DNA of 33,640 bases, from UHGV virus genome UHGV-0206080. The stretch is one strand, 5' to 3'. Positions 17,350 to 33,640 of this stretch are shown here, piece after piece. Made by a program: the position numbers and the translations under genes. The notes under the pieces were generated by a model that saw only the letters and a program-made list of their open reading frames with translations, was not told the origin of the DNA and made no database searches. The number at the start of each line of letters is the position of its first letter. Within the stretch, counting starts at the first letter, position 1. Source of the stretch: a virus.

Positions 17350-19725
17350 ATGCATCGTATAGACACGAAAACCGCGCAGAAGGATAAGTTCGGCGCGGGT
17401 AAGAACGGTTTTACCCGTGGTAACCCCCAGACCGGCACGCCTGCCACCGATCTGGATGATGACTACTTTGACATGTTGCAGGAAGAACTTTGCAGCGTGG
17501 TGGAGGCCTCCGGTGCCAGTCTGGAGAAGGCGCGGCACGACCAGCTGCTTACCGCGCTTCGTGCGCTGCTGTTAAGCCGCAAAAATCCGTTTGGCGATAT
17601 CAAATCGGATGGCACGGTAGAACGCGCTCTTGAAAATCTGGGGTTACAGGATGTAAAAGCTGGTTCATTGAACAATCTGTACACTAACCATTCCCGTAGT
17701 GTCTTAATGGAATTGCCGTTATTATTCCCAGACTACGATACGGTGCTGGCTGCTCAGTCTGGTGCGGAATATATGTATCCACAGGGATTTGTGGTGACAG
17801 GAGAAAAAATCTATCTGAGTTATACCGTTGAGCCAAAGCAGACACGGAACGTTATAGTTCAGTACACAACATCCGGCGAATATGAGGGATATTATTATGT
17901 CGATAATGGAGGTCGTGGCGTTGTCAGCGAAGGCCTTGTGGTGACAACGGATTACGGTGGATTACGTTTGTTCATGTCAGGAGAAAATGGATTACTGAAA
18001 CAGTTTTCGCTTGATGGGGCAATTTCTGGTTCAGTATTGCCGTTAATTGATGAACATGATGTCGGTGTTTACAACCAGTTCAGCTATCGTAAAAACCGCT
18101 GGGTGGTTGAACAGTCAGCGCCGGAAGTGGGAGGCCTGATCACCCGCACAGTATTTGCGGTGTATGATTTTCAGTTTCGTCGGACAGGGACATTCACATT
18201 ACCGTTGCATGATTCCGGATATATCACGGAAAGCACAGACAGCTATGCAAGACGCTTCACAAAACGTCAGGGAATTGCTGTGGGAGACGATTATATTGCC
18301 TGTTCTTATGGTGGCTATTTTAATACCGGGGCATCAGCCGGATTTAACCAGTTTCAGGGGGTTAAGGTCTTTTCTCCGGATGGAGTAAAGCAGCAGGAAT
18401 CCATTCTTCATCCCCAAAAAATGATAGATGTGCTTACCAGGCAGGGTTTTACACCTTCGCGCATTGAGAACGAAGGAATTTGTATTTCTGACGACGGCGG
18501 CAGTATATATTCGCTTTATATCTTTCTGGAGCGTGGGTTACCACAGGCTTATCAGAAAGGAATTGTTCTGATGAAAGAGTTCAGTACTGGCAGAGATGCT
18601 ATTGATTTTCGTCAGGCAGCCTGGTTGTACACGGGGTTTGATGTGTCTCATGCCAGTATTGGAACATTTCCCCGTAGTGCCCAGGGGTTGGTAAACCCGG
18701 TGTTGGGGACGGTATTCACATCCCTGTCTGAAATTCTGGCATATATGCGTTCTGTGAGTCAGAAATGGTTTTGTCTGCATACAACCACGACACCGATTAA
18801 AGATCTGAGTGGAAATGACATTCCTGCTGACAATTATGTGTTCATCAAGAATGCTAATAACCAGACATTCTATATAACGCAGGAGTCAGCTGAAGGTGGA
18901 ATAAAATATAAAGCTGTCACTACAGACAGCGGAGAATATGGTTTTCAGCGACAAAGAGAGGCAATCTGGTCCAATGTTATCACCATCGCACAAAAGAGCG
19001 ATGGTGAGGATCAGTTTAATCGTATTATCGCTGCCTCGAAAAGTGGTTCAGGTAAAAATCAGGATAAAATACTGGTAGTTGACCAACAGGCATCAGAGGG
19101 GAATAACACGCTGGTAATTGGCGGTGGTTCATCTGTGTTCAGGTCAGCGACAGTGATTGATTTTGCAACGAATCAGGATGCAAATGCCACAGGAGGAGAA
19201 AAGAGATGGCGCATAGATTCATCAGGAAATCTCCGCCCTTATACAGATAATACGTATTCGATCGGTTATGCCTCATGGCGACCCGCACAGGTTTATTCAG
19301 CTACGGGAAGTATCAGTACATCAGACCGGACTCATAAACAGGACGAAACAATTCTGTCGGATGCAGAAAAAAGGGTTGCCAGAAAGCTGCTCGGGTATAT
19401 CTGTCGGTTCCGTTTCAGAGATGCAGTGTCCAGCAAAGGGAACGCAGCCAGATGGCATGTAGGAGTGATTGCTCAGGACGTACAGAAGGTCTTCTCTGAG
19501 GAAGGGCTGGACGCTTTTGATTACGGTATTTTGTGTCGTGATGAATATCCGGCGGAATATGAAGTGGTTTACGGGACTCGTATGGAGCTTGGTCCTGACG
19601 GACTCCTTACAATGGAAGAATACGATACCGGAGAGCGCAAGCTGGTCAGGGAGGCTGGTGAAATAATGTCTGTAAGGAATGATGAGCTGCATTATTTCAT
19701 GCTGGCATCGCTGTCTGGCCAGTGA
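17350..19725 (+). CDS. Tail fibre protein with C-terminal intramolecular chaperone-like (S74-type) domain
   Basis: 791 aa; GC-rich conserved N-terminus ([17 protein letters not shown]...), AT-rich distal part; SDRTHK motif at 19321-19338 resembles the S-D-x3-K autocleavage motif. Confidence 0.8.
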
Positions 19726-19765
19726 ATAATATTAATGTAAGGAGCGATATAAGCTCCTTACATCA

Positions 19766-19945
19766 TGCATTTTATGCTGCGATTATGCGTTCTCCTGTTG
19801 TTTGTTGCTGAGAGTGAAACACCGGAAACATACTGGTGGATTGAAATGTTCTGTGTGGCAGCGTATGAATATGTCGTGGTAGGGTGGATAAAAAATGCCC
19901 GTGATGATCCGGGCAACATAGCAGTATGCATTTTTCTATTGTGAA
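19766..19945 (+). CDS. Small hydrophobic hypothetical protein (59 aa)
   Basis: ATG at 19766; translation MHFMLRLCVLLLFVAESETPETYWWIEMFCVAAYEYVVVGWIKNARDDPGNIAVCIFLL; nearest SD (AAGGAG, 19739-19744) is 21 nt upstream and inside a hairpin. Confidence 0.25.
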
Positions 19946-20453
19946 CTGATGCATTATACAAGTAATGCTGTTATTGAGGAAAGTTTAAAGAAGCGGCTCT
20001 TCTCCGCCTGTAAAGTTTGGTCATTATTGCTTTATATATAAGTTCCACCAGTAGGCGATCATCTATGATGTTGGCATATCGACTTTGTATAAGAGGTTTC
20101 CGGTCGGAGATAAATGAAACCGTAGCACGTCGTATGCAAGAACGTGCCACGGCTGGCTGGCGAACTTTCGATAGTGCGAGTATTGAATGATTTCCAGCTG
20201 TTACTGATTTTATATAACTGCAGTGGAATTATTCAACACACAGGCAAAACGGAATAAGCTGAGAAAAAAAAGCGTGCTTTCCCAATCTGGGGTAAATCAC
20301 ATCTGAATGACACCTGAAAACAGGTGGTGGCCTCAAGAAGGCTTGGAATATTCTTCTTTAATGTTATGTAATTTATTGATTTTTCGTGTACGATTTTAAG
20401 ACATTTATTCCAAGAAAAATTTTTAACTCTTTGATTTTTCGACTCTGTATCAT

Positions 20454-20515
20454 CGGTCTCGAAAACCGGAGTGGGGGCAACTCCACCGGGGGTTCAAATC
20501 CCCCTCTCTCCGCCA
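20454..20515 (+). other. attP core: 3' portion of a tRNA-Ser gene (anticodon loop CGA region through T-arm and CCA)
   Basis: GGTCTCGAAAACCGGAG...GGGGGTTCAAATCCCCCTCTCTCCGCCA matches tRNA-Ser with long variable arm; no 5' half upstream. Confidence 0.75.
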
Positions 20516-20560
20516 AAATTCAATCACTTACACATCATTAAGTCAGTGACAAAAATCACA

Positions 20561-20594
20561 CTTGGAATTACTTGGAATATTGTCTTGGAATATT
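20561..20594 (+). repeat. Three direct CTTGGAAT(A/T) repeats, putative arm-type integrase binding sites; further copies at 20342-20350 and inverted at 20406-20414
   Basis: Read directly; repeats flank the tRNA-derived core and overlap the integrase 3' end. Confidence 0.5.
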
Positions 20595-21593
20595 TTCAGG
20601 TAACGGGACATCAAGTGTTGGTGAAACTTTAACCTTCCTGTCATAGATTAGCACTTGCCCTTCGGTTTTGTGACCAGAGAAAAGTTGCTTATCCCGACTG
20701 CTTCCTTCATAGTCTGAAATTCCTTTCGCCTTCAGATCATGAAAGGTGAAGTCGGTTAAAATACCTGAAATTTTGCCTGCGCGATTTCTTGCTTCTACCC
20801 ACATTTCGTTAAAGCCTTTGTACATATATCGGTTGCCGTATTGATTGCTGATTACATAGGCGGATGTTGGTAACTGTTTTGCTTTTTCGATCGCCGCCTG
20901 TAATCGTGGACTCCATGCTTTTATCTGTTTTTTCCCTGTTTTCCCTTGCTGGATAAAGATCCCGTCGTTTCCAATCTGCTCCCATTTCAGCGATAACACA
21001 TCGGAAACCCTCGCTGCACACAGATAGGCAATTTCCATTGCGATAAAAACAGGAAGAGGTGCAACGCTTAATACTGCCTGGTATTCTTTGTCGGTTACAT
21101 ATCGTTCGCGGTTTTTGGCCTTGAATTTACTTACACCTGCACATGGGTTAGCCTTCACGTACCCTCGCTCATATCCCCAACTGTAAACGCGGGACATACT
21201 GCTTTTTTCATGGTTGGCTTGCGTTTTGCTCTGTTCCCCTCTTTTGTCCATGTATCGACGGATGTGTTCTGGTTTTATGGAATCCGCTGGTACCTTACCG
21301 AATACGGCAAGCAACTTTTTTTGATGTTGCAGATAATCTTTTTGTGTTCTTGGGCTAAGGTCACTGTAACAGGCGCTGGCGAGGAATTTTTCCCACAAGC
21401 GACCGAATGTCATTGCACGATCGCGATTATTTACAGTTTCCTCATACTTTTTCCATAAAGCAGCTAAACCATCCTTGATGGCGGTTAGTGTTACAGATTC
21501 TCTGGATGTTGGTTTCCATACATAACTATATTTATTTGGGTATACATTTGGAGGTAATTTTTCGTGTTCAGGATTTTTCCTTCGTCTTCCCAT
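20568..21593 (-). CDS. int: Tyrosine integrase (lambda Int-like)
   Basis: 341 aa; C-terminal catalytic region ...RVSDVLSLKW...FHDLKAKG...GHKTEGQVLIYDRK with Tyr nucleophile; adjacent to attP. Confidence 0.9.
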   Translation of the reverse strand: MGRRRKNPEHEKLPPNVYPNKYSYVWKPTSRESVTLTAIKDGLAALWKKYEETVNNRDRAMTFGRLWEKFLASACYSDLSPRTQKDYLQHQKKLLAVFGKVPADSIKPEHIRRYMDKRGEQSKTQANHEKSSMSRVYSWGYERGYVKANPCAGVSKFKAKNRERYVTDKEYQAVLSVAPLPVFIAMEIAYLCAARVSDVLSLKWEQIGNDGIFIQQGKTGKKQIKAWSPRLQAAIEKAKQLPTSAYVISNQYGNRYMYKGFNEMWVEARNRAGKISGILTDFTFHDLKAKGISDYEGSSRDKQLFSGHKTEGQVLIYDRKVKVSPTLDVPLPENIPRQYSK

Positions 21594-21796
21594 CAGATCG
21601 CACCAAAATTCGGCTCTACCTCGCGTGGTGGTAAAGTTTTATTGCAGGTAAATAGATCCCGGCTGACAATCGGTTTGCCACTACGATTGGTATAGAACGG
21701 AAGCCCGTTTTCCATTAACCATTTTCGCTGGTGGCTTGCATATTTGCAGCCCGTTAATATTAGCAATTCATCTTCGGTTAAAAATAAGCTGCTCAT
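21593..21796 (-). CDS. Excisionase-like small protein (DUF4224-type)
   Basis: 67 aa; immediately upstream of and overlapping int start. Confidence 0.5.
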   Translation of the reverse strand: MSSLFLTEDELLILTGCKYASHQRKWLMENGLPFYTNRSGKPIVSRDLFTCNKTLPPREVEPNFGAI

Positions 21797-21812
21797 AGCT
21801 ATATCTCATAAC

Positions 21813-21840
21813 CGCCGCTAACTATATGCGGTTAGCGGCG
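21813..21840 (-). promoter_or_regulatory. 10-bp stem / 8-nt loop hairpin between exonuclease gene and xis
   Basis: CGCCGCTAAC-TATATGCG-GTTAGCGGCG; no T-run, so likely processing or regulatory structure rather than an intrinsic terminator. Confidence 0.4.
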
Positions 21841-21854
21841 ATCAGGGTTGAACA

Positions 21855-24326
21855 TTAAAAATCAGCCTGACTCGGGATCAGTTTTTGCCAGATAGCTGAA
21901 ACGTATTTTGCCTGGTAACGGGCGTCATCAAGTGCATTATGGCGCTCACCTTCGAATGGAATAGCCGTTCTGGCATCGAAGTCTATGGCTTTCCCCAGCT
22001 CAACGATTGTGCGTACATCGCGATCGTTGTAGTAACGCCACGGGCAGGGGATCCCCTGCCGTTCGTATGAACGGCGCAAAATTGTGTTGTCGAAGTTGGC
22101 TCCATTTCCCCAGACCTGAACAAAAAATTCACCGGAGTTTTCGTCGATAAATTCCCGCAATTGTAACAGTGCATCATCTAACGGGATTTCATCGGTCATA
22201 ATGGCAGATTGCGCCTCCCGTGATTGCTTAAGCCACCATTTAATGGTGCCACGATCAATGACTCCGCCAGCAGTATCCATATCGATGGTCTTACTAAATT
22301 CCGGCCCCATATCTCCGGTTTGCGGATCGAAAAATATTGCACCTATTGAGATAAGCGGGGCATCGGGATTTTTTCCCATGGTTTCAAGGTCGATCATCAT
22401 GTGGTGCCACATTCTGCTGGTGGATGTGATTTTATGATGACCGTTCATGGTAATTAAGGGATTTGCCGTCCCGCCAGCTTCATTATCGCTGGTGTGATGC
22501 TGATTACCGTCAGCGTTCTCTTTGTGCGGATATTCAACACGTTCCATTTCCTCCGGATCATTTTCCTGAACTTCAACCTGATTCTCTTCATTGAATGTTT
22601 CCTGGTATGTTGCGTCACCCATCACCGCGCCACAATCAGGGCTGTTGCCGCCACCGCTTTGACCGCAGGCGGTGCAGACTTTTTCCGGTTCCTGTTGCGC
22701 TACTGGCTCAGGTTGTTTCGTTTCTGGCTCGTTTTGTTGCGTATTTGGGCTGTTTTGTTCCGCTTTCTGGTCGTTCTGTTCCGATTCTTGCTGGTTCTGG
22801 TTTACAGAATCGCGGGTTTCAATCCCCTTTACCCATTTCGGATCATTCGGGTCGCTAATCCCTGCAACAAATTCTCCGCGAGAGGCAGCAAGCAACTTAT
22901 CGGCGTCAGGCTGGCTGATATTAGCTGCCTGCATAATTTTGTTTACTTCGTCAGCGGTAACTTTTACCGGCTCTGGTTGTGCGGTCGTGTCAGATGCACC
23001 AGTATTTTGTTGTGAACCTGAGTACGTGCCGTTTTTACGTGCGAAGTATTCCTCTTTTGTGATTTCCGTAGCTCCCAAGGCTAGTGCTTTTTCCAGACCA
23101 GAAAGTTTGTTTGCGCGACCGTATTTTTCGCCATCCTTGTCGGTGAAGAGGAAGTAGAACGGCCCCTCACGCTCTACAGATGGTTCGACTTCCACTTTGC
23201 ATTCGGTTTTTTCGTTGTCCGGAATTGCCGTTTCCACTGCATCAGTTTCTGGTACTGGCGACGAGAGAGTATCAGTTGCGCTCTGATTTCTTCCTTCATC
23301 TTCAAACACGCCCTTTGTAGTCAGGTATTCAGTAATGTATTTGTTCAGTGCCACAGGGTCTTTGTGAATGTCGATCGGACGTTCACGGACAAGGCCAAAA
23401 ATAGTCTGGCGGTCGTAGCGAAGGACATCAGGCTGTTTGCGCATTGATGCCGAGATACGCTTCCAGTCTTCGCGGTCGTTGTCGATAACTTCATTTTTTG
23501 CCCAGCGATGGATGCTGCCGTCAATGTTTCCGGTATCAATATCGCCAGGCCAGAGAGCGTAGGCCAGTTCTTCATCCAGCGTTTTCCATGTCTGCTTGTA
23601 TTCGCGACAAATGGCGGCAGTGACTGGGTTGATTTTTCCTGCTGAGTTTTCAGTGTTCTGTTGATTGACTCTGGCGCTGGCGAGATCAACAACAGACGTG
23701 TATTTTCCAGTCTCTTTGCGCTCTGCGTCCTGCCGTTTTTTCCAGTTACGTAATTCAGCCTGAATTTCGGGCCATTTGGCACCCGGATTACATTTGTGTT
23801 TAACCCATCCGATAGCGAACAGTTTGCGTTCCGGATACATAGCGTTAATTTCAGGCGTTTTCATCAGTGCTTCAACGATATGCCCGTCAAAGGTAGCAAC
23901 GTCTTCCTGCAGTAATTCCTGCGCGTCAATCGCCATATCAACGGTGATGTTTTCACATGTACCGAACTTAACCAGGACCGCGTTCTGTACTTCAAGGGAC
24001 AGCTTGTCAAAATTGACGTTCATCGGATCGGATTCTGGTTCGACCGGAATAAAGGAAGCGGATTCCTCATCCCAGCGGTTTTCCTGCATATATTCAGCAT
24101 CCCAGGAATCGAGGGCAGGGCGGGGTATACCGGGTTTATCCTCGCAGACAAGAAATTTATAAGCGCAGTCCTGAGCAGCCGGATAATGTTCCAGGAATTG
24201 CCAGTGAAATTTTGCGCGGGCGCGACGTTCATCACCGGCTTCAATGGCAGTGGCTACAGCGACGGCACCTTCTTCCTTTATTGCCTGTTCGTCCGGAATG
24301 GCGGCGCAAATAAAGACTTTACTCAT
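21855..24326 (-). CDS. Exonuclease: RecE-like N-terminal/middle region fused to a C-terminal DnaQ-like DEDDh 3'-5' exonuclease domain
   Basis: 823 aa; C-terminal motifs MIDLETMG, WGNGANFDN, HNALDDARYQ; KLLAASRGEFVAGISDPNDPKWVKGI segment recalled from RecE-family proteins; Q/E/N-rich linker. Confidence 0.75.
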   Translation of the reverse strand: MSKVFICAAIPDEQAIKEEGAVAVATAIEAGDERRARAKFHWQFLEHYPAAQDCAYKFLVCEDKPGIPRPALDSWDAEYMQENRWDEESASFIPVEPESDPMNVNFDKLSLEVQNAVLVKFGTCENITVDMAIDAQELLQEDVATFDGHIVEALMKTPEINAMYPERKLFAIGWVKHKCNPGAKWPEIQAELRNWKKRQDAERKETGKYTSVVDLASARVNQQNTENSAGKINPVTAAICREYKQTWKTLDEELAYALWPGDIDTGNIDGSIHRWAKNEVIDNDREDWKRISASMRKQPDVLRYDRQTIFGLVRERPIDIHKDPVALNKYITEYLTTKGVFEDEGRNQSATDTLSSPVPETDAVETAIPDNEKTECKVEVEPSVEREGPFYFLFTDKDGEKYGRANKLSGLEKALALGATEITKEEYFARKNGTYSGSQQNTGASDTTAQPEPVKVTADEVNKIMQAANISQPDADKLLAASRGEFVAGISDPNDPKWVKGIETRDSVNQNQQESEQNDQKAEQNSPNTQQNEPETKQPEPVAQQEPEKVCTACGQSGGGNSPDCGAVMGDATYQETFNEENQVEVQENDPEEMERVEYPHKENADGNQHHTSDNEAGGTANPLITMNGHHKITSTSRMWHHMMIDLETMGKNPDAPLISIGAIFFDPQTGDMGPEFSKTIDMDTAGGVIDRGTIKWWLKQSREAQSAIMTDEIPLDDALLQLREFIDENSGEFFVQVWGNGANFDNTILRRSYERQGIPCPWRYYNDRDVRTIVELGKAIDFDARTAIPFEGERHNALDDARYQAKYVSAIWQKLIPSQADF

Positions 24327-24421
24327 TTTGTTTTAACCTCATTACAGATTTCAGGGTGAACGAATCCCTGCCATTGCTGGCATTTTTAATCCGTTGGTAT
24401 GGCGTTAATATGGCTGGCGGG

Positions 24422-24610
24422 TTATCCAGCCGGTATTTCGTTATTCAGGTTCAGCGATACTTTTTTTAACGGGAGGCATTCACCGGGGATTTTTTGTTCG
24501 TCCCTTACCTGAATGCAGGATGACTTACTGTCATAAATTCCGGTAATCACATTTTGTGGCTCACCCGTTATAAGAAAAACGGTCATCACCAGTGCAAATG
24601 CTGAAGTCAC
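24422..24610 (-). CDS. Small protein with hydrophobic N-terminus (62 aa)
   Basis: GTG start preceded by GGAGA; translationally coupled to upstream gene; N-terminus MTSAFALVMTVFLITG. Confidence 0.4.
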   Translation of the reverse strand: MTSAFALVMTVFLITGEPQNVITGIYDSKSSCIQVRDEQKIPGECLPLKKVSLNLNNEIPAG

Positions 24611-24795
24611 TGCTGTTCTCCGATAATACCAAGTTCAAGAAGGGCAATTCTGGAAAGTATGGAATTATCATTGAGAAGATAAGGTTCATATTTTCTCATC
24701 TTAATGGCATCTTCCGTAAACTCCCGGTTACTGAGCAGAACACCAATATCAAAACAACCTTCAGACGTATTAACGTTTGGTAATAACGTTTCCAT
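24607..24795 (-). CDS. Small hypothetical protein (62 aa from ATG at 24795; alternative GTG start at 24900 gives 97 aa)
   Basis: ATG at 24795 has GAGGA RBS 7 nt upstream; the GTG at 24900 has no SD. Confidence 0.4.
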   Translation of the reverse strand: METLLPNVNTSEGCFDIGVLLSNREFTEDAIKMRKYEPYLLNDNSILSRIALLELGIIGEQQ

Positions 24796-25327
24796 TATCG
24801 CGTCCTCAACAATGAATTTTGTGATGCGGTGCCTGGTGCCTCCAGGTGACGTTAACCAGTTAACAATTAACGCCGGATACAGAGAATCCACCCATAACAC
24901 TGTTTTTGGTTTTAACTGTTCCGCGTGCGCTCAGCCGCATTCACCACATCACAAAATTCACTTTAAAAAGGGCGGCAGAGCAGTCACGGAGTAAAACTGA
25001 TACCGCCAAACGTCACCAGAAAATTGATAACAGAGGGCGTTGCAGCGGGGTTGTCACTTAAGCGTATGGTCAACCTGACAACCCGGTGTCCTCAGCGGGG
25101 GAAGGAATAACCCCGCCATACTTACCGCCGCGCCATTTCGCGGATTGCCACAACCGGAAGCGCACGATCGAATTAAATTTAACGACGACCTATACAGAGA
25201 GACTAACTTCTCCGGGCGCTTTCGTGTTATGCCCTGACTTTTCAGGGATATATCCTTTTCAGTAAACTGTCAGTGCCGGATTCTTATCCGTGTCCGGCGC
25301 ACGCACTCTACCTCACCTGTGAATAAA

Positions 25328-25702
25328 TTAATGATTAATCGATATTTTGTTGTTTGATTCAACTTTCCCATCGGATGTGTGATGCTTTAAATCACAGGAA
25401 TTAATACTGCTTGCTGTAAAATGATTTTCAAGGGGAGCTATTCGAATCCCTTTCTTTTTCATTAACAAGCCAAATCCTTTATTAATGATGTCCATTAATT
25501 CCAGAAAGTATTTTTCATGTAAATCCTGGTTATCAGAGAGCTGCTTCTCTTCGTACAGCCCGATAAAGGCTCGGCGTACGTTACCGGATATATTGTCGAT
25601 GGTTTCTTTTTCTACGGTACTCAGGTCAAGAGTCGCCAGTTGAGAGCGAACCACATTCGATGCCATTTCCTGGAATGGTACTGGTAAATCTTTAAATTCC
25701 AT
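25328..25702 (-). CDS. Hypothetical protein (about 124 aa), AT-rich accessory gene
   Basis: ATG at 25702 with GAGG SD; ORF 25328..25714; coupled to the 85-aa gene upstream. Confidence 0.5.
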   Translation of the reverse strand: MEFKDLPVPFQEMASNVVRSQLATLDLSTVEKETIDNISGNVRRAFIGLYEEKQLSDNQDLHEKYFLELMDIINKGFGLLMKKKGIRIAPLENHFTASSINSCDLKHHTSDGKVESNNKISINH

Positions 25703-25713
25703 CGTCAACCTCA

Positions 25714-25971
25714 TCAGTCGGAGTTTCTTGCTAACCAGCGATGCGCGCCAGCTTCGGTTTTAAACGTTTTGCTTTTGGTATACGTCATGGCGGTGAATGT
25801 GCCGTCCTGGTTGGGGAACACACCACATACCAGAGATTCGCTGTTGCCAAGATCGATAGTATCCATGCTGACCTCATTACCCCTTAACGCCGGGTAGCGG
25901 AACTGTTTGCTGAGAACACCGTGCGGTGTCTTGATGGGTGGTAATTTAGTTTTCTCATGAATGTCGGTCAA
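25714..25971 (-). CDS. Hypothetical protein (85 aa; TTG start, internal Met at residue 36)
   Basis: First gene leftward of the repressor; stop overlaps start of the next gene (TGATG). Confidence 0.4.
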   Translation of the reverse strand: MTDIHEKTKLPPIKTPHGVLSKQFRYPALRGNEVSMDTIDLGNSESLVCGVFPNQDGTFTAMTYTKSKTFKTEAGAHRWLARNSD

Positions 25972-26017
25972 GCATTTTTAATGAGAAAACTCAATATTTA
26001 ATGCAAAATAAAGCCAA

Positions 26018-26031
26018 TACATTGAAATGTA
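26018..26031. promoter_or_regulatory. Operator-like inverted repeat TACATT-GA-AATGTA within putative leftward early promoter region
   Basis: Read directly; lies in the 84-bp AT-rich gap between the dicA-like stop and the first leftward gene. Confidence 0.3.
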
Positions 26032-26055
26032 AGGCTTTAAAATTTGTGAAGGGGG

Positions 26056-26463
26056 TTACTGATGTTTGTTACGTTTGCGAGCTTCTAGTAGCTCGGTGAA
26101 TAGGCGATTAAAATTCTCAACGCGGGCACGGAGTTCGCTGATTTGTGCTTGCTGCTCTGATTTTGGAAGTGCGCGATACAATCGCAACATCTCCAACTCA
26201 TCTTCCGATAAGTCTAAGGCGCTGTTGAGTGCTACTGGTGGATCTGGTGTTTTATCCTCGTCACCAAACAGTATCCAAGTTGGTGAACATTGCAATACCT
26301 CAGCCAGGCGATGCAAATTTTGCCCGCGCGGGGCTGTATGGTCGCTTTCCCATAGTGAAATTGATGAGCCAGATACGCCAGCGGCTTTGCTTAAATCGTT
26401 TTGACTTAAACCAACCTGTTTGCGTCTTTCTCTAATTCGTTGACCTAAAGTTTTCTCGTTCAT
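26056..26463 (-). CDS. dicA: DicA-like HTH (XRE-family) phage repressor
   Basis: 135 aa; close match in length and sequence to recalled E. coli Qin DicA (..GERIRxRRK...QCSPTWILFGDEDK...RARVxNFNxLFxELLxAR..). Confidence 0.85.
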   Translation of the reverse strand: MNEKTLGQRIRERRKQVGLSQNDLSKAAGVSGSSISLWESDHTAPRGQNLHRLAEVLQCSPTWILFGDEDKTPDPPVALNSALDLSEDELEMLRLYRALPKSEQQAQISELRARVENFNRLFTELLEARKRNKHQ

Positions 26464-26484
26464 ATTTAGATATCTTAATAACCC

Positions 26485-26514
26485 TTGACTTGAGATTCCT
26501 TGAATGATTACTAT
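26485..26514 (+). promoter_or_regulatory. Putative rightward early promoter (-35 TTGACT, about 17-nt spacer, -10 TTACTA/TACTAT) for the dicC-like gene
   Basis: Consensus-like hexamers in the 77-bp divergent intergenic region; GGAGGGG RBS at 26533-26539. Confidence 0.4.
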
Positions 26515-26540
26515 TGAGAAAACTCAACTTTGGAGGGGTG

Positions 26541-26768
26541 ATGTTTAAATCAGACGTAATTAATTTTTATGGGACGAAAGCCAAAGTAGCGAAAGCTGCT
26601 GGTGTTGATCCATCTGCTGTTTCTCAATGGGGGGAACTGGTTCCTGAAGGTCGCGCGATGCGCCTGCAAGAGGCATCCGGCGGGGAACTTCAGTACGACC
26701 CCAAAGTTTATGACGAATATCGTAAGGCAAAGCGGGCGGGGCGGTTGAACAATGAAAATCACCCCTGA
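26541..26768 (+). CDS. dicC: DicC-like Cro-type regulator
   Basis: 75 aa from ATG 26541; ...LVPEGRAMRLQEASGGELQYDPKVYDEYRKAKRAGRLNNENH matches recalled Qin DicC; divergent from the repressor. Confidence 0.8.
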   Translation: MFKSDVINFYGTKAKVAKAAGVDPSAVSQWGELVPEGRAMRLQEASGGELQYDPKVYDEYRKAKRAGRLNNENHP

Positions 26769-27303
26769 ACAGGTTTGTGAGGCTCTGGATGCCTGGGTAT
26801 GTCGACCAGGAATGACACAGGAGCAAGCGACGATATTAATCACGGAAGCATTCTGGGCTCTGAAAGAACGCCCGAACATCGATGTTCAACGCGTCACGTT
26901 TAATGATGGCGAGGTTGATCAACGGGCGCTGGGCGTTAACCGGGTGAAGATATTCGAACGCTGGAAAGCTATCGACACCAGGGATAAGCGGAAAAAATTC
27001 ACGGCGCTGATTCCGGCAATTATGGAGGCTATCCGAATTAGTGATTTCAGGTTGTATCGTGAGATCAGTGATGGAAAAAGCATTACGTACATGATCGCCG
27101 GATTAAACAAAGAATATGGCGATGTGGTGGAGTCCGGGCTGCTTTTTGCGGATCCAGCTGTTGTGGAACGTGAGACTGACGAGCTTATAGAAAAAGCTAT
27201 TGCTTTCAAGCATGCGTATCGTCAGCAATATCAATATTACTTTGCAGATAAACAAATGTCTGCCAGGGGTTTGTATGAGTATCGATGCACTACGATGGGC
27301 TAA
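26752..27303 (+). CDS. YdaT-family protein (cII-position regulatory protein)
   Basis: 183 aa; position after cro-like gene; MKI..E....A..W and KIF.RW...D......ALIPAI segments resemble recalled Rac YdaT. Confidence 0.5.
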   Translation: MKITPEQVCEALDAWVCRPGMTQEQATILITEAFWALKERPNIDVQRVTFNDGEVDQRALGVNRVKIFERWKAIDTRDKRKKFTALIPAIMEAIRISDFRLYREISDGKSITYMIAGLNKEYGDVVESGLLFADPAVVERETDELIEKAIAFKHAYRQQYQYYFADKQMSARGLYEYRCTTMG

Positions 27304-28315
27304 AAAGGTGAAAACCGGCAGTTCATCCAGTAAGTCTGTATTGACCTGGCTTGCTGATATGTGCGGTGCCGATTTGTGTGCATACCCGTCTGTATCTGCA
27401 CTGGCAGAAGTAACGGAACTAAACAAAAAGACTGTGCAGGACAGCTTACGACACCTGATGGAGATTGGGTTAATTGTTGATACCGGTGAGAGAAAAGGCA
27501 GAACAAAGCAAATTGTGGTGTACCGACTTATCGGTGTAGAAGAAAGTGTTGCCGAGCCTGAATACACCCAAAAACGGGAGTCTTTAAAGGTGGGTAAAAT
27601 TGGTGCTGTTAATAAAAACAGTACCGAAAATGGTTATGTTTCAGCACAAAACAGACCCAAAAACGGAACTCTTAGCTGCATGGAAAATAACCAAAGACAC
27701 CCAAATTTTCCATCAAAGACACCCAAAAACGGATCACGGAACCCAAAGGAACCCAAAGATCTAAACCCCACACATAACGCACGCGAGAGTGCTCCGACCA
27801 GTGAGCAGGAAGTTTTGTCGTTACAGGCAGCACCCCTTGTATTCCTGGATGGCCTGAGCGAACCCATCGGAAAATTTCCGATGACCGATAGCTGGTATCC
27901 GTCACGGGATTTTCGACGACGGGCTGCGTTGTGGGGGATGGCTTTGCCGGAGACAGAATTTACACCTGCTGAACTTGCCGCCTTCCGGGACTACTGGGCA
28001 GCGGAGGGGAAAGTGTTTACGCAGATTCAGTGGGAGCAGAAATTCGCCCGTCACGTAAATCACGTCAGGGCGCAGGTTAAACCAGTCAGCAAGGGGGTAA
28101 ACCATGCAGCAGCACCAGGTGGCACCGCATCACGGGCAGTTCAGGAAATTCGGGCAGCACGTGAGCAGTGGGAACGTGAAAACGGATTTATCAGCGACGG
28201 AAACGGTCTGGAAGCTGTGGGAACTCATGGGGGAGGTTTATTCGAACCGCTGGACCCAGAAGAACGGGGCCGCACCTTCGAAGCTCTGGATTGCACAGAT
28301 TGGCGCGATGACTGA
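27275..28315 (+). CDS. Replication initiation protein (N-terminal winged HTH, C-terminal DnaT-like region)
   Basis: ATG 27275 with AGGGG RBS; N-terminus MSIDALRWAKKV...ALAEVTELNKKTVQDSLRHLMEIGLI; ORF 27200..28315. Confidence 0.65.
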   Translation: MSIDALRWAKKVKTGSSSSKSVLTWLADMCGADLCAYPSVSALAEVTELNKKTVQDSLRHLMEIGLIVDTGERKGRTKQIVVYRLIGVEESVAEPEYTQKRESLKVGKIGAVNKNSTENGYVSAQNRPKNGTLSCMENNQRHPNFPSKTPKNGSRNPKEPKDLNPTHNARESAPTSEQEVLSLQAAPLVFLDGLSEPIGKFPMTDSWYPSRDFRRRAALWGMALPETEFTPAELAAFRDYWAAEGKVFTQIQWEQKFARHVNHVRAQVKPVSKGVNHAAAPGGTASRAVQEIRAAREQWERENGFISDGNGLEAVGTHGGGLFEPLDPEERGRTFEALDCTDWRDD

Positions 28316-28769
28316 GCAGCAAATCCGACAGGTCTGCCGCCAGTGCATGGACCGCTGCCGGGCGGGTGAAACATGGCCTCCGGACCTGGCTGAGTTTGTG
28401 GCGCTGATTTCAGAAAGCGGGGCCAATCCATTTGGCCTGACGGTGGATGCTGTGATGGAGGAGTACCGCCGCTGGCGTGATGAGTCCTGGCGATATGACG
28501 GAAGCGACAAATATCCGTGGCCTCAGCCTGTGCTGTACCACATCTGCCTCGAAATGCGTACCAGAGGGATTGAGCGCCAGATGACGCAGGGTGAGTTAAA
28601 ACGACTTGCGGAACGGCAACTGACGAAATGGGCAAAGCATGTTGGTAACGGGATGAGTGTTCCGCCAGTGCGACGACAACTGGAAGGGGCGAAACACCCG
28701 CAAGGGCCAACGCCAATTGAACGGCTGAAACAGGAATACGAACGCCGGAAGGCAGCTGGTTTTATTTGA
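28104..28769 (+). CDS. Replication protein P-like (helicase loader); start uncertain (28104, 28227 or 28308)
   Basis: C-terminal region KYPWPQPVLYHICLEMRTRGIERQMTQGELKRLAERQL resembles recalled lambda P (SYPWKSNAHYWLV...LTDAELRRKAADEL). Confidence 0.6.
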   Translation: MQQHQVAPHHGQFRKFGQHVSSGNVKTDLSATETVWKLWELMGEVYSNRWTQKNGAAPSKLWIAQIGAMTEQQIRQVCRQCMDRCRAGETWPPDLAEFVALISESGANPFGLTVDAVMEEYRRWRDESWRYDGSDKYPWPQPVLYHICLEMRTRGIERQMTQGELKRLAERQLTKWAKHVGNGMSVPPVRRQLEGAKHPQGPTPIERLKQEYERRKAAGFI

Positions 28770-28802
28770 ATCTGAGAAACGATTTTGTCGGAGGAAATTT
28801 TA

Positions 28803-29573
28803 ATGGAAACCGTATTTGACGCACTGAAAGCAATGGGAAAAGCCACATCGGTAGAACTGGCCGCGCGACTTGATATCAGTCGTGAAGAGGTTCTCAACGA
28901 GCTGTGGGAACTCAAAAGAAATGACGTCGTTGATAAAACTGGTCACACCTGGTTTCTGGCTGGCGAAGGTGAATCCCGGGTAACCGAAGAGCGGCCAGTA
29001 AAATCTGAAGCACAGGATATGCTGACCGGAGAGGTCGAACAAAAAGTTACCGCAGACATGATGATTGAGTTTATCGGTCAGGATGGTGCTAAAACGTGTG
29101 AGGAACTGGCGGGTAAGTTCGGCGTCAGTACTCGCAAGGTTGCCTCCACGCTGGCGGTGGTAACCGCAACGGGGCGGCTGGCACGAGTTAATCAGAACGG
29201 TAAATTTCGTTACTGCATGCCGGGCGATAATTTACCAGCAGAGCCGAAAGCCGCGCTGGTAACGGAAAGTGATGGTAAGGCCTTTCCTCAGCCAGCAGGT
29301 GCTGCGTTACCAGTCCGGGAAGCCGCAACACAGGAAGAAATTAAAACAGAAACTGTGGCGGACATTGTGCAGCCGTTGCCATCGTTTACCGAAACGCAAG
29401 CAGATGAGCTGATTTTTCCGTCCCTTCGCAGGGCAAACCTGGCGCTGCGCAGGGCGAAAAGTGATGTTCAGAAGTGGGAGCGAGTCTGCGCCGCGCTGCG
29501 GGAGCTGAACAAGCACCGGGATATTGTTCGACAGATTACTGATTCTTCCCGCCGTGTTGTATCGGAAAAGTGA
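28803..29573 (+). CDS. Hypothetical protein (DUF1627-like, winged-helix-like N-terminus)
   Basis: ATG 28803 with GGAGG SD 8 nt upstream; 256 aa. Confidence 0.5.
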
Positions 29574-29588
29574 TTGCCGGAGGCGCTT

Positions 29589-29981
29589 ATGGCAAAAGTA
29601 TTTACACCAGAAGAGCGGGAAGAAGTGAAGGCGCGCATTGTGGAATTCGTGCGCCTGAGCGGACGAGAAACTTTTCGACAACTGGCAGATAAAACGGGTG
29701 TCAGTAAGACCGCTATTCGTCGTTTATCTGGTGCGCTTGCGGCCAGTGGTGATGTCTGGCTCTCTGGTTGCGGGGTATTTCCATCAGAGCAGGCGTATCG
29801 CGTATGGCGTAAGACACCGGAGAAGGCTGCTGACCCGACACTGATTCGAAAGTTACCTGACGGAGAAATACGTCGTTACAACAGACGGCAGAACATAATT
29901 TGTCGTGAGTGCCGCCAGAGCGAAGTTATGCAGCGTGTGCTGGCGTTCTATCGGGGAAACTTTCAGGAGGTGATGGAGTGA
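29589..29981 (+). CDS. Hypothetical protein (130 aa)
   Basis: ATG 29589 with GGAGG SD; ORF 29574..29981. Confidence 0.5.
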   Translation: MAKVFTPEEREEVKARIVEFVRLSGRETFRQLADKTGVSKTAIRRLSGALAASGDVWLSGCGVFPSEQAYRVWRKTPEKAADPTLIRKLPDGEIRRYNRRQNIICRECRQSEVMQRVLAFYRGNFQEVME

Positions 29982-30274
29982 GGGTCAGAGTTTATATTGC
30001 CGGTCCAATGACGGGATATGAAAATTTCAACCGTGAGGCGTTTCACAAGGCGGAAGAGGAACTGAAACGGGAAGGGCATACCGTCTTAAACCCGGCAGTA
30101 CTTCCGGACGGGCTGACACAGCCGCACTACATGGATATTTGCATGGCAATGATTCGTTGTGTGGATGCGATTTACATGCTGAATGGCTGGCAGCGGTCAG
30201 CGGGCGCTAAGGCAGAGCTGGCACTGGCGGAGAAACTGGGGCATGCAGTGATTTATCAGGAGGTGGCTCAATGA
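29978..30274 (+). CDS. DUF4406-like protein (nucleoside 2-deoxyribosyltransferase-like fold)
   Basis: GTG 29978 preceded by AGGAGG (29965-29970); N-terminus (M)RVRVYIAGPMTGYENFNREAF is typical of this fold. Confidence 0.55.
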   Translation: MRVRVYIAGPMTGYENFNREAFHKAEEELKREGHTVLNPAVLPDGLTQPHYMDICMAMIRCVDAIYMLNGWQRSAGAKAELALAEKLGHAVIYQEVAQ

Positions 30275-30732
30275 GAGAGGTTAACTATGAGGCGCTTCGT
30301 GAGGCAGCACAAAACTATCAGTCGACGCTGGCGTGGTATCAGGCTATCCCGGACAGCCCAAATGCTGAACGGGATTGTGATGCGGCTCTTGCTGCGTTTA
30401 AGCGTCACATCCGTCATCGGGAAGCGGATATTATCGCTGATTTGCTGGATGGACTGGAAGAAGCAAAATCACAACTCAAAGAGCAGCGTGAGTATTACGA
30501 AGGCGTTATCTCTGATGGGAGCAAGCGTATTGCTGAACTGGAAGCGCGGGAAGTTCAATTACCGACTCGCTACGACCTTCGATATGGACACCCGATAAAT
30601 GCAGATGAGCGACATGTCATGATACCTAAAGAAAATGGCAGTTGGCTTTACCTGATTGACCTAGAACACGCATTACGCGTCTCTGGCATTCGCATCAAAG
30701 GAGAGGAGCATGGAAATAAAACCAGAGGATGA
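30271..30732 (+). CDS. Hypothetical protein (153 aa)
   Basis: ATGA overlap with upstream gene; coiled-coil-like middle region. Confidence 0.5.
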   Translation: MREVNYEALREAAQNYQSTLAWYQAIPDSPNAERDCDAALAAFKRHIRHREADIIADLLDGLEEAKSQLKEQREYYEGVISDGSKRIAELEAREVQLPTRYDLRYGHPINADERHVMIPKENGSWLYLIDLEHALRVSGIRIKGEEHGNKTRG

Positions 30733-31066
30733 GTTAAGCAATATCGTTTTATTTCCGGTAAAAGAGGATGACCCTCGTAATCAGGTTAATTTTCTTTATG
30801 AGCCATCGGAAAGACCATATTGTCATCACGCCTCTGTCCGGGTTGACGAAAAAGAGCGTCAGGTCCGCTGTAAAATCTGCGGTGCAGTTGTGGAGCCATT
30901 TGACTGGATGCTCTCTGTGGCGAAAAGAGAAACCAGACTGGCAGATGATGTAAGGCACTTGCGCCAGGAGGAGCGGGAAAGGCGAAAAAATATAGAAAAG
31001 CTAATTCAGATTGAGCGTAACGCGAAAGCGCGGATACGCAGGGCGACAAAATCCAGAACTGAATAA
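30710..31066 (+). CDS. Hypothetical Cys-containing (zinc-ribbon-like) protein with basic coiled-coil C-terminus
   Basis: 118 aa; CHH...CKICG cysteine/histidine pattern; RQEERERRKNIEKLIQIERNAKARIRRA tail. Confidence 0.45.
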   Translation: MEIKPEDELSNIVLFPVKEDDPRNQVNFLYEPSERPYCHHASVRVDEKERQVRCKICGAVVEPFDWMLSVAKRETRLADDVRHLRQEERERRKNIEKLIQIERNAKARIRRATKSRTE

Positions 31067-31159
31067 TTAAATTTAGCTCTGTTAAAAATTTAATCCTTAA
31101 CCGGAGGGATTTCTGCACCCTCAGAACATCAGGAGGCCGCCCGAAAGGGCGGTAGTTAA

Positions 31160-31342
31160 ATGCGAAAGTTTAAAATAATTATTGAAACGGGAATAGCCGG
31201 TGGAGATTTCGAGGATGAATTCGAAGTGGATGATGATGCGACGCCTGATGAAATACATGACGAAGCAAAAGATATTTTCTTTAACTACTGCAATTACTCA
31301 TATCACGAAATAAAAGACGAAGAGGAAGAGCAAAATGGCTGA
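31160..31342 (+). CDS. Highly acidic small protein (60 aa)
   Basis: DFEDEFEVDDDATPDEIHDEAKD...KDEEEEQ; SD AGGAGG separated from the ATG by a GAAA-tetraloop hairpin. Confidence 0.45.
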   Translation: MRKFKIIIETGIAGGDFEDEFEVDDDATPDEIHDEAKDIFFNYCNYSYHEIKDEEEEQNG

Positions 31343-31511
31343 TTTTGGTTCAACTAAATACAACGTCAGTTTTGAAGCATGGCATGAACTGTTAATGGAC
31401 TATGCAGAGTTACGTGGTGGCAGTGCTGCTGATGCTGAAGCATGGCGTGATGATTATGAAGCAGGAAAAACTCCGGTCGAAGCATATTGTGATGAGTGGG
31501 GCGATGAATGA
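31335..31511 (+). CDS. Acidic, Trp-containing small protein (58 aa)
   Basis: ATG 31335 overlaps upstream gene; stop overlaps next ATG (ATGA); below ORF-track cutoff. Confidence 0.35.
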   Translation: MADFGSTKYNVSFEAWHELLMDYAELRGGSAADAEAWRDDYEAGKTPVEAYCDEWGDE

Positions 31512-32023
31512 GCGAGATTAATTATCAGGAAGGGCATGAAACGGCAGGGCAGGCAAAACCAGTTGCATGGCGATATCGCTACGTGAAAAAAGACGTTACA
31601 GACTTTCAGGGGAAGCCGTGGGCTGGTGACTGGAAATATGTACCGACAAAAGAGGATTGTAACGACAGGCCGAACTATGAAATTCAGGCCTTATTCATCG
31701 GCCCGCCAGTCCCGGTGACATCAGAAGGACTGGTTAAAGCCGTGCGCTTTTATGAACAGGTAAAGCGTGAGAATCCGCCAGTCGAAACAGGAGCATGGAA
31801 GGATGCTGTTGACTGGGTGCTCAGAGAGGCCTGCTGCGCTGCCATTCTGGGTAAAGCCGACAATCCACCAGCATCCGGCAATCAGGTTAGCGAATTAACA
31901 ATGTGGGTTAAACGACTGGTCAGTCAACTGAAAAAAGCTCAGCCGGACTGCAAATTACCGGAGAAGGCGATGGATTACCTGAAACGAAATGGACTGATAA
32001 GCGTGGAGGATGTTTTACGATGA
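31508..32023 (+). CDS. Hypothetical protein (171 aa)
   Basis: Translationally coupled to the two acidic genes. Confidence 0.5.
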   Translation: MSEINYQEGHETAGQAKPVAWRYRYVKKDVTDFQGKPWAGDWKYVPTKEDCNDRPNYEIQALFIGPPVPVTSEGLVKAVRFYEQVKRENPPVETGAWKDAVDWVLREACCAAILGKADNPPASGNQVSELTMWVKRLVSQLKKAQPDCKLPEKAMDYLKRNGLISVEDVLR

Positions 32024-32143
32024 ATATTTAGACTAAAGAGTTTGTAACGCTATGTAAGTGATTTTTTCTGGTTTAGATATTTATATGTCCGGCCAAATTG
32101 AGGTGTGTTTAAATGTTATTGCACATTGATTGTAGGGGGAATA

Positions 32144-32323
32144 ATGAAAAACGCATTGCAGTTTTTGTTTGTTGCGTTCTGGTTGTTCGCATCATGTATG
32201 CCCATCATCTTCACAGCAAGGTATATGGAAAAAATTGATGTTTTGATATTAATGTTTGGACATATAAATGCCCTTTTTTTAGGGGTGTTCATGGCGGTCA
32301 TGTGCATTGAATACTGGCGGTAA
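32144..32323 (+). CDS. Small membrane protein (59 aa, two hydrophobic segments)
   Basis: ATG 32144 after AGGGGGA; very AT-rich; ORF 32105..32323. Confidence 0.4.
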   Translation: MKNALQFLFVAFWLFASCMPIIFTARYMEKIDVLILMFGHINALFLGVFMAVMCIEYWR

Positions 32324-32580
32324 ATACAGCGAACACCATTGGTTTAGTTGGATATTTACTGTGCCGGACAAAAACGGTTTGCGGGGAAATCTTAGTTAAG
32401 TAGAATAACTGCGGGTGCTTGAGGCTATCTGTCTCAGGCATGAACACCAAAAGGCAGATAGAGAAAAGCCCCAGTTAACATTACGCGTCCTGCAAGACGC
32501 TTAACATTAATCTGAGGCCATATCTATGCGACACATAGAGATTAGCCTCTTACGGACCGAAAGGTCAAGGAGAAGCAGGC

Positions 32581-32737
32581 TATGAAGCAGCAAAAGGCGA
32601 TGTTAATCGCCCTGATCGTCATCTGTTTAACCGTCATAGTGACGGCACTGGTAACGAGGAAAGACCTCTGCGAGGTACGAATCCGAACCGGCCAGACGGA
32701 GGTCGCTGTCTTCACAGCTTACGAACCTGAGGAGTAA
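32581..32737 (+). pseudogene. hokD: hokD/relF-type Hok toxin gene, apparently frameshifted by a 1-bp insertion near 32700
   Basis: Residues 1-40 MKQQKAMLIALIVICLTVIVTALVTRKDLCEVRIRTGQTE match recalled HokD; after GAGGG at 32698-32702 the conserved tail VAVFTAYEPEE is encoded in the +1 frame; in-frame product ends GRCLHSLRT at 32730. Confidence 0.65.
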
Positions 32738-32744
32738 GAGACCC

Positions 32745-32766
32745 GGCGAGGGAGAAATCCCTCGCC
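32745..32766 (+). promoter_or_regulatory. 8-bp stem hairpin just downstream of hok (possible fbi-like 3' element)
   Basis: GGCGAGGG-AGAAAT-CCCTCGCC. Confidence 0.4.
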
Positions 32767-32806
32767 ACCTCTGATGTGGCAGGCATTCTCAACGCACCCG
32801 CACTTA

Positions 32807-32830
32807 ACCCGCTTCGGCGGGTTTTTGTTT
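32807..32830 (+). terminator. Rho-independent terminator after the hok locus
   Basis: ACCCGC-TTCG-GCGGGT followed by TTTTTGTTTTT. Confidence 0.7.
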
Positions 32831-32953
32831 TTATTTTCAACGCATTTGAAGTTCTGGACGGTGCCGGAATAGAATCAAAAATACTTAAGTAGCGCGCAGG
32901 GATAAGAGGGATGGTCCCTTAAAGGGGAGAGCTAATTATCCGGAAGGATTCTG

Positions 32954-33205
32954 ATGATGAACATCGAAGAACTGCGTAAAATTTTTTGTGAAGATGGCCT
33001 CTATGCTGTGTGCGTTGAAAATGGAAATATTGTTAGTCATTACCGCATTGTGTGTTTGCATAAAAATGGGGCTGCGTTAATTAATTTTGTGGATGCCCGA
33101 GTGACGGACGGATTTATCTTGCGCGACGGTGAGTTTGTCACTTCATTACAGGTATTGAAAGAGATCGGAATAAAAGCTGGCTTTTCTGCTTTTTCAGAAG
33201 AATAA
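32954..33205 (+). CDS. Hypothetical protein (83 aa)
   Basis: GGAAGGA SD before ATG. Confidence 0.45.
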   Translation: MMNIEELRKIFCEDGLYAVCVENGNIVSHYRIVCLHKNGAALINFVDARVTDGFILRDGEFVTSLQVLKEIGIKAGFSAFSEE

Positions 33206-33271
33206 ACTCATCTACAATCTTGCGCGGGGCTGAACTCCCGCTGAGTAACACCGTGCCACCGGAGAAAACCG

Positions 33272-33550
33272 ATGGCACGCAACGCAAAATATTACAAACA
33301 TGATAATTCGACCGTTCTTGCCCACACGCACGAGCGGTATTCTCACGCATTTAAGTCAGACTGGTACCAGCATCCCCCATGCACTGAAGAACAGGCCGAA
33401 TGGCTCATTCAGTGTTACCGCAGGCGCGGATGCGAGGTTAAAAAAGCCCTTAGCCTCGACTACCGTCACTGGATAATCTCCGTCAGGCTGCCTTACTCCG
33501 AACGCCCACCGCGTCTGTCCCGCACATTCCAGCAACGCATCTGGAGGTAA
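33272..33550 (+). CDS. Hypothetical protein (92 aa), basic, Cys/His-containing
   Basis: ORF with stop overlapping the SD region of a downstream ORF. Confidence 0.45.
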   Translation: MARNAKYYKHDNSTVLAHTHERYSHAFKSDWYQHPPCTEEQAEWLIQCYRRRGCEVKKALSLDYRHWIISVRLPYSERPPRLSRTFQQRIWR

Positions 33551-33551
33551 C

Positions 33552-33640
33552 GTGCGGGTAGTACTTCGACCTGTTCTGGTACCGGCACTCGGGCTGGTGA
33601 TCCTTAAGCCGGGCCGTGAATCCATGCCGGTCTTCCACAA
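33552..33640 (+). CDS. Partial CDS running off window end (hydrophobic N-terminus VRVVLRPVLVPALGLVILKPG)
   Basis: GTG at 33552 after GGAGG (spacing 3 nt); open to the end of the window. Confidence 0.25.
   Translation, partial: MRVVLRPVLVPALGLVILKPGRESMPVFH

Follow-up and report, generated by a model that had tools for sequence, protein, structure and literature searches.

A tRNA-Ser(CGA) fragment in the probable lambda-type attP of a temperate SfV/ST64B-like Escherichia coli phage

The window analyzed here, a stretch of 33,640 nucleotides of viral DNA (UHGV-0206080), carries between its tail-fibre and integrase genes a 62-bp segment that resembles the 3' portion of a serine tRNA gene and lacks the 5' half. 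Such a segment may belong to a working phage attachment site, to a fossil of a former one or to an RNA gene with a function of its own, and its internal position raises the additional question of whether the window originates from a phage genome or from a bacterial chromosome. A preliminary description, made from the window alone, had interpreted the segment as an attP core. Comparison with host and phage genomes leads us, with a rough probability of 0.9, to assign it to the core region of the lambda-type attP of a temperate SfV/ST64B-like E. coli myovirus. A lambda-type attP for serU is ordinary, textbook biology and is well supported.

The tRNA fragment and the attachment site around it

The plus strand of positions 20454-20515 reads CGGTCTCGAAAACCGGAGTGGGGGCAACTCCACCGGGGGTTCAAATCCCCCTCTCTCCGCCA and aligns with the 3' 62 nt of K-12 serU, the gene of tRNA-Ser(CGA), with 60 of 62 positions identical, a degree of identity that chance would not produce. 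Identity to the host gene starts exactly at 20454, the sequence directly upstream ending in ...CTCTGTATCAT; both the nature and the limits of the fragment had been correctly recognized in the preliminary description. The fragment spans four of the five nucleotides of the anticodon-stem 5' strand, the loop CUCGAAA with the anticodon CGA, the long variable arm, the T arm, the 3' acceptor strand and the CCA end. The 5' 28 nt of the tRNA, i.e. the 5' acceptor strand, the D arm and the first anticodon-stem nucleotide, are missing from the attP. Past the CCA, a weak likeness to the DNA downstream of host serU extends for 15 bp, and matches to K-12 across the attP region are confined to 20454-20530. 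The two mismatches with K-12 are a G at 20473 (A in the host) and a C at 20484 (T in the host). These bases pair with each other in the folded variable-arm stem, where A:U is replaced by G:C, and constitute a compensatory pair; the phage-type and host-type tRNAs adopt an identical cloverleaf fold, long variable arm included.

The fragment very probably lies within a complete lambda-type attP of ~250 bp (about 20342-20591) which overlaps the 3' end of the integrase gene int (Table 1). The motif CTTGGAAT occurs five times on the two strands of the 33.6-kb window and all five copies are located inside the attP; the observed count of the 11-mer arm-site pattern was reached in none of 100 shuffles. 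These copies flank the core, are distinct from it in sequence and are predicted to be bound by the integrase as arm-type sites, the three P' copies overlapping the last int codons. Salmonella phage ST64B and Klebsiella phage KpF5, which like the window carry a 3' tRNA-Ser(CGA) fragment beside int, display five sites at offsets -109, -47 (inverted), +109, +119 and +132, the corresponding offsets in the window being the same or differing by 2-3 bp. The motif is GAGAAAA in these two phages as compared to CTTGGAAT in the window, and the N-terminal domains of the integrases differ accordingly. Since the geometry is kept while the motif co-varies, the assignment of the arm sites receives good comparative support. 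The only two perfect matches to the IHF consensus in the 33.6-kb window are both found in the P arm, and KpF5 shows a one-mismatch match at the same offset as the leftmost of them. A third candidate, at +64, deviates by one mismatch and falls in the 15 bp still resembling host DNA downstream of serU; it is also present in ST64B and KpF5, and K-12 attB displays a perfect consensus at +65. All three are putative IHF sites.

The tail-fibre gene relic to the left of the attP resembles the ends of the tail-fibre genes of HK97, HK106, phi80, phiP27 and HK633, and marks the left edge of a lambdoid attP-int cassette joined to an SfV-like tail module. Positions 20112-20151 within this relic match the 3' hairpin of the Shigella sRNA CssrB in Rfam with 30.8 bits, the gathering score being 76; this is probably just a conserved hairpin. 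A bidirectional terminator-like hairpin with a stem of 11-13 bp (19733-19765) directly follows the tail-fibre stop codon and is separated from the attP by ~700 bp devoid of any convincing ORF.

Table 1. Features of the attachment region and adjoining genes in the window
Feature	Position	Strand	Remarks
Tail fibre, 791 aa	17350-19725		Peptidase_S74 domain
Relic, 3' end of a lambdoid side-tail-fibre or tail-fibre-assembly gene	20106-20215	+	87-94% to phage tail-fibre gene ends
Predicted arm-type site P1, CTTGGAAT	20342-20349	+	Offset -112 from core start
IHF-consensus site, P arm, AATCAATAAATTA	20369-20381	-	Perfect WATCAANNNNTTR match
Predicted arm-type site P2, CTTGGAAT inverted	20407-20414	-	Offset -47
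IHF-consensus site, P arm, AATCAAAGAGTTA	20424-20436	-	Perfect consensus match
Interval containing the strand-exchange (overlap) region	20454-20472	+	19 bp identical in attP, attB, attL and attR
tRNA-Ser(CGA), 3' 62 nt	20454-20515	+	Becomes 3' part of serU in the lysogen
Phage-type variable arm	20473-20484	+	G/C for host A/T at tRNA positions 48:59 (linear numbering)
IHF-like site, ATTCAATCACTTA, one mismatch	20518-20530	+	Just after CCA, H'-like position
Three predicted tandem arm-type sites P'1, P'2, P'3, CTTGGAAT at 20561, 20571 and 20584	20561-20591	+	Offsets +107/+117/+130
Tyrosine integrase, 341 aa, lambda-Int architecture	20568-21593	-	PF00589 (3.5e-11), PF22022
Excisionase (recombination directionality factor), 67 aa, DUF4224	21593-21796	-	PF13986

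Four att forms and the crossover interval

Prophages are known to occupy the serU gene of E. coli (PMC8767318, PMC7067040). E. coli THO-003 (locus L003) harbors a single serU prophage of the same phage, inserted between mtfA-serU and zinT, and allows the four attachment forms to be compared. The attP of the window consists of the P arm, the core, the phage-type tRNA part and the P' arm. The attL of THO-003 (L003 4553) joins the host 5' half of the tRNA to the core, the phage-type variable arm, the P' arm and int, and its attR (L003 44644) is made of the P arm, the core, the host-type 62 nt and host downstream DNA. The attB of K-12 (L004) is entirely host sequence. ARAGORN detects a complete 90-nt tRNA-Ser(cga) at the THO-003 attL (L003 4525-4614) and none at the attR. 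Ten further loci (L010-L019) encoding an identical Int also display an attL beside mtfA, and in each of them the reconstituted serU has the phage-type variable arm. While the composition of attR was read in THO-003, that of attL was read in 11 independent lysogen loci (L003, L010-L019), and the phage-type 3' 62 nt is found in all 11 copies with the host 5' half joined at 20454. The suggestion that this attP regenerates the tRNA gene upon integration is borne out by these loci. The restoration of a split tRNA gene by the integrating element is a general rule (PMC4383910), and the arrangement expected of a tRNA-targeting element is found here, the 3' part restoring the gene at attL and the displaced 3' fragment lying at the far end. 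Comparison with host genomes also confirms the predicted serU-like target, which is serU itself, located between mtfA and yodB/zinT.

At 20473 and 20484 the bases are of phage type in attL and of host type in attR, which puts the crossover to the left of 20473. Given this segregation of the markers, strand exchange has to take place within 20454-20472, in the anticodon stem-loop of serU. The core is shared by attP and attB, and the flanking markers segregate as expected for a lambda-type system. The crossover is localised by the sequence to this 19-bp interval and no finer; judging from other integrases with tRNA-gene targets, the overlap probably corresponds to the 7-nt anticodon loop. Only part of the 62 bp is core, as exchange is restricted to the first 19 bp and the remainder constitutes a replacement copy of the tRNA. 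The 62-bp attP core of the preliminary description is correct in placing the tRNA fragment in the attP, but the exchange interval is shorter than proposed and the attP, at about 250 bp, is larger.

The course of integration would follow the heterobivalent Int model summarised in PMC2951348. The N-terminal domain of Int would bind the five CTTGGAAT arm sites, two in P and three in P', the catalytic domains would bind the core, and IHF would bend the arms. The resulting complex would capture host serU and exchange strands within the shared 19 bp. Integration splits serU and combines the phage 3' 62 nt with the host 5' 28 nt into an intact, slightly chimeric tRNA-Ser(CGA). The rebuilt tRNA gene is located at attL beside int, and the host 3' fragment that was displaced is found at attR, next to the end of the tail-fibre gene. 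Excision, aided by the DUF4224 excisionase, would regenerate the exact junction present in the window. Natural products of such recombination are seen as attL and attR in many genomes and as the P-O-P' form in the window.

Two other readings of the fragment have to be weighed against a functional attP. It could be a dead relic, i.e. a fossil att site carried along unused, and relics of this kind do travel in phage genomes: the free lambdoid phages ev099 and mEp332 hold the same P arm followed by a host-type serU 3' fragment and host downstream DNA (a fossil attR), with a different, lambda-type integrase 2.4 kb away. Both arms of the window attP are nevertheless phage-type and complete, and all their five arm sites keep the conserved offsets; the matching int and xis genes lie intact directly beside them, and many lysogens display precise attL and attR sites made by the same module, all of which renders a relic highly improbable. 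The fragment could also represent a functional RNA encoded by the phage, either a tRNA or a tRNA-derived species (a truncated tRNA gene or an sRNA, for example), as the anticodon, the variable arm and the T arm are retained and tRNA-like Rfam models match weakly. The preliminary description had proposed tRNAscan-SE as a check for a complete tRNA gene; ARAGORN finds none in the whole window, where the full cloverleaf is not formed and the 5' 28 nt, including the 5' acceptor strand and the D arm, are missing. A permissive E-value Rfam search of 20000-21000 yields only partial matches below threshold (an antisense tRNA-like plastid 3'UTR model and a tmRNA fragment) and none at the gathering score; no tRNA family is listed for this segment, three lower-scoring overlapping matches of the same clan being suppressed. 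Moreover, no promoter-like site is found upstream on the plus strand within the arm, and the boundary of the fragment coincides exactly with the attL/attR junction. An RNA gene is the least plausible of all the readings considered, and a functional attP is retained.

Phages ev099 and mEp332 were at first sight candidates for free phages carrying the attP of the window; they were rejected, the alignment consisting of an attR-type relic with its host flank next to another integrase. In both ev099 (L006/L020, around L020 1063-1140) and mEp332 (L021), an AraC-type regulator gene and fragments of transposases come after the relic, which suggests a past aberrant excision or recombination with a serU prophage.

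Gene order and source of the window

The window proceeds from the vicinity of cos and the small terminase gene through the tail genes to the att site, int and the early genes. Positions 44-20530 correspond to L003 24234-44721 in the THO-003 prophage with 99.93% identity. Positions 20454-33640 match L003 4553-18629 in four blocks of 88.7-99.5% identity separated by divergent stretches (immunity region), the segments 20454-24383 and 26627-33640 corresponding to L003 4553-8484 and 11616-18629 at 98-99.5%. Because both its parts match L003 in swapped order, the window reads, by alignment, as a circular permutation of the single THO-003 serU prophage. It falls ~5.6 kb short of a closed circle, the segment L003 18630-24233 encoding DUF968 and DUF1133 proteins, an ATP-binding protein, lysis genes and HNH. 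Host flanking sequence, which the preliminary description had also proposed to look for, is absent on both sides of 20454-20515: the left flank is a P arm common to other phages and the right flank is int. The phage order, or circular permutation, advanced there is upheld by the collinearity with the permuted THO-003 prophage and by the phage DNA on both flanks. The associated claim of a phage-form copy holds for the permuted order, but the physical form is inferred and P-O-P' is also encountered in 11 chromosomes.

An internal P-O-P' alone does not prove a free phage genome. The window could come from a chromosome in which an intact P-O-P' is trapped in a tandem or composite prophage, either in a double lysogen of the same phage or after homologous recombination of a circular genome into a resident prophage; the anatomy of the attP would be unchanged, but the source would not be a free genome. 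Tandem integration of lambdoid prophages is documented (PMC2669165) and 11 complete E. coli chromosomes hold 20380-20600 contiguously. Because one of these copies lies inside a prophage region of 2013C-4991 which ends in intR/xisR at ttcA, an intact attP can indeed be trapped in a composite prophage. Positions 1-43 of the window, an inverted near-copy of a small-terminase segment in place of cos-upstream DNA, could reflect a rearranged locus. Against a chromosomal source, the junction proper to the window (19000-21600) is contiguous in none of 5,426 complete E. coli genomes, and no phage record contains it as one piece. In the 11 chromosomes with P-O-P', only a shared cassette from about 20125 rightwards matches. 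Both halves of the window belong to one THO-003 prophage. The identical tail-fibre protein is never followed by the int of the window in the ten places shown among the 24 longest-contig blocks read of 1,922: downstream, six places have zinT/yodB, two a further island beyond attR and two an integrase of the dusA type. A trapped chromosomal copy is consequently considered unlikely, and the window probably derives from a free phage genome, be it excised or packaged in a virion.

The joining of attL and attR by mis-assembly through the tRNA repeat was rejected as the origin of the junction, as the combination of a P arm with the phage-type base at 20473 needs a switch inside the 19-bp repeat. Other copies of P-O-P' are found in three contigs of IMG/VR and in five metagenome contigs. 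Because what these have in common with the window is confined to the cassette rightwards of about 20110-20257, they were rejected as the same phage and attributed to other phages. In 2013C-4991 (L001 and L034, NZ_CP027355.1 about 1243617-1313000), the intact serU-type P-O-P' is located inside a prophage region with intR/xisR at ttcA as its far end and three DUF1076 (NleG-like) genes just left of the attP. This layout is consistent with homologous recombination of a circular phage genome into a prophage already resident at the Rac site. For this strain a tandem array at serU was rejected, since the left prophage ends at intR/xisR beside ttcA and the whole is a composite at the Rac site.

The left edge of the window has a distinct structure. 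Homology to the SfV-like phages and to the THO-003 prophage begins at 44 with CTGCCCGCC, which corresponds to SfV position 7, next to cos, while in SfV and the THO-003 prophage the sequence runs uninterrupted through cos (...GACGTCT|TCCGGACTGCCCGCC...). Positions 1-43 differ from the expected cos-upstream sequence, and positions 1-48 nearly repeat (43/48), in inverted orientation, a stretch of the small terminase gene at 435-482. The left junction (about 20-70) could not be matched exactly in IMG/VR, in GTDB genomes or in JGI metagenomes, and 1-43 is covered by none of the E. coli genomes or phage records searched. This junction may be a chimeric sequence added at the physical cos end of virion DNA, or a rearrangement.

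The integration module, its relatives and its significance

Over its full length the integrase can be aligned with lambda Int (PDB 1Z1B, lambda Int 1-338), with an E-value of 6e-13 and ~22% identity. Its residues 1-60 align with the lambda Int N-domain (MGRRR..LPPN.Y), and this pairwise alignment points to an N-terminal arm-binding domain; Pfam reports no arm-domain match in the integrase at E<=0.01. Residues H285, H308 and Y317 align with lambda H308, H333 and Y342 and Arg I is present, so that a tyrosine recombinase with its catalytic domain adjoins the attP. The position of the catalytic Arg II (lambda R311, motif H-x-L-R) is occupied by K288 (FHDLKAKG). A lysine is also found at this position in the integrases of ST64B, KpF5, Pectobacterium phage ZF40 and Pseudomonas phage Dobby, while the arginine is kept in those of Xfas53, KS5 and the lambda type. 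Because it is conserved in these four phages, the lysine looks like a clade trait and not damage, and the integrases of this clade look functional from their sequences. PGAP labels the integrase 'frameshifted' in three E. coli records, a discrepancy limited to the final ~10 codons; these are supplied by the P' arm repeats, and the catalytic tyrosine is upstream of them. The ST64B and KpF5 integrases end before the C-terminal tail of the window Int, and the overlap of the P' sites with the last int codons probably explains the label. The DUF4224 protein matches the PHROG excisionase family phrog_1266 at 3e-21 and is 36% identical to Sb29 of ST64B; an exonuclease gene lies on the minus strand beyond int and the DUF4224 gene.

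Among the closest known systems is that of ST64B, for which insertion in serU has been published (PMC10100743). The integrases of ST64B (Sb28) and KpF5 are both 59% identical to that of the window, over aa 1-328 for Sb28, which also displays the HDLKAKG active-site variant. In addition to the excisionase homologue and the target gene, ST64B shares the order of Mu/SfV-like tail genes, attP, int, xis and exonuclease. The differences are that the tRNA copy of the window matches E. coli serU and not Salmonella serU, that the window Int alone possesses a 12-aa C-terminal tail encoded by the P' repeats, and that ST64B alone carries an effector gene and a DNA-binding-protein gene with pin/gin-like annotation between the tail genes and the attP. 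As in lambda, the integrase is predicted to be of the heterobivalent type, there are two P and three tandem P' arm sites with putative IHF consensus sites in both arms, xis is upstream of int and the attP is just downstream of int. Unlike lambda, which uses a gal-bio intergenic site and a 15-bp core, the window targets a tRNA gene, with which it shares 19 bp exactly and a further 43 nt of near-identical replacement tRNA; its excisionase is of the DUF4224 type rather than lambda Xis, and its Arg II is a lysine.

The structural module (44 to about 17640) is 94-97% identical to those of SfV, SfI, SfII and SfIV, a group in which attP and int likewise follow the tail genes in a phage-order layout. 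This similarity ends at about 17640 in the phage database search, and no SfV-group record matches the attP-int segment 19700-21800. The SfV group integrates in thrW and carries O-antigen modification genes next to its attP; the attP-int-xis cassette of the window is of ST64B/lambdoid origin. The E. coli serU prophages (ST131-type such as THO-003, STEC and the 'vB_EcoM-606R7' record) have a 99-100% identical int and the same attL, and the THO-003 prophage represents the same whole phage at 98-99.9%. These prophages are the integrated form, with attL, attR and host flanks, and the window is the recombined P-O-P' form. The identical 791-aa tail fibre and baseplate module also occurs in a second prophage type (L041, L042), where it is followed by dinI and a 365-aa integrase beside dusA; strain DA33137 contains both the serU and the dusA versions. 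One tail module is hence combined with different integration cassettes. At two loci (L038, L044) the attR of the serU prophage is followed by another island (DUF6387, an AlpA-like regulator and an H-NS-like protein) in place of yodB/zinT, which suggests serial occupation of the serU site.

This type of attP is already known and the phage is present, integrated, in many public E. coli genomes; by a rough estimate, roughly a quarter of complete genomes show a match better than the bare attB at the serU locus. The result fixes the attP, names serU as the host target and identifies the window as the phage-order permutation of a prophage widespread in E. coli. Its value lies mainly in annotation and nothing here challenges current understanding.

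A more far-reaching proposal, which we regard as very improbable, is that lysogeny rewrites serU: the lysogens examined would express a chimeric tRNA-Ser(CGA) whose variant is selected and not a neutral hitch-hiker. The long variable arm is the element used by seryl-tRNA synthetase for recognition, and selection on the phage-type tRNA could act through stability, charging or escape from a tRNA-targeting nuclease. Separately from this, the integrase clade with lysine at Arg II (the phage of the window, ST64B, KpF5, ZF40 and Dobby) offers a natural integrase pair in which the attP geometry is retained but the arm-site specificity is swapped. Two by-products may be of use. The crossover could be mapped to the anticodon stem-loop from sequence only, with the variable-arm pair as markers, and the comparison with ST64B and KpF5 reveals a conserved attP geometry in which arm motif and Int N-domain co-vary, a feature that could guide the choice or engineering of integrases.
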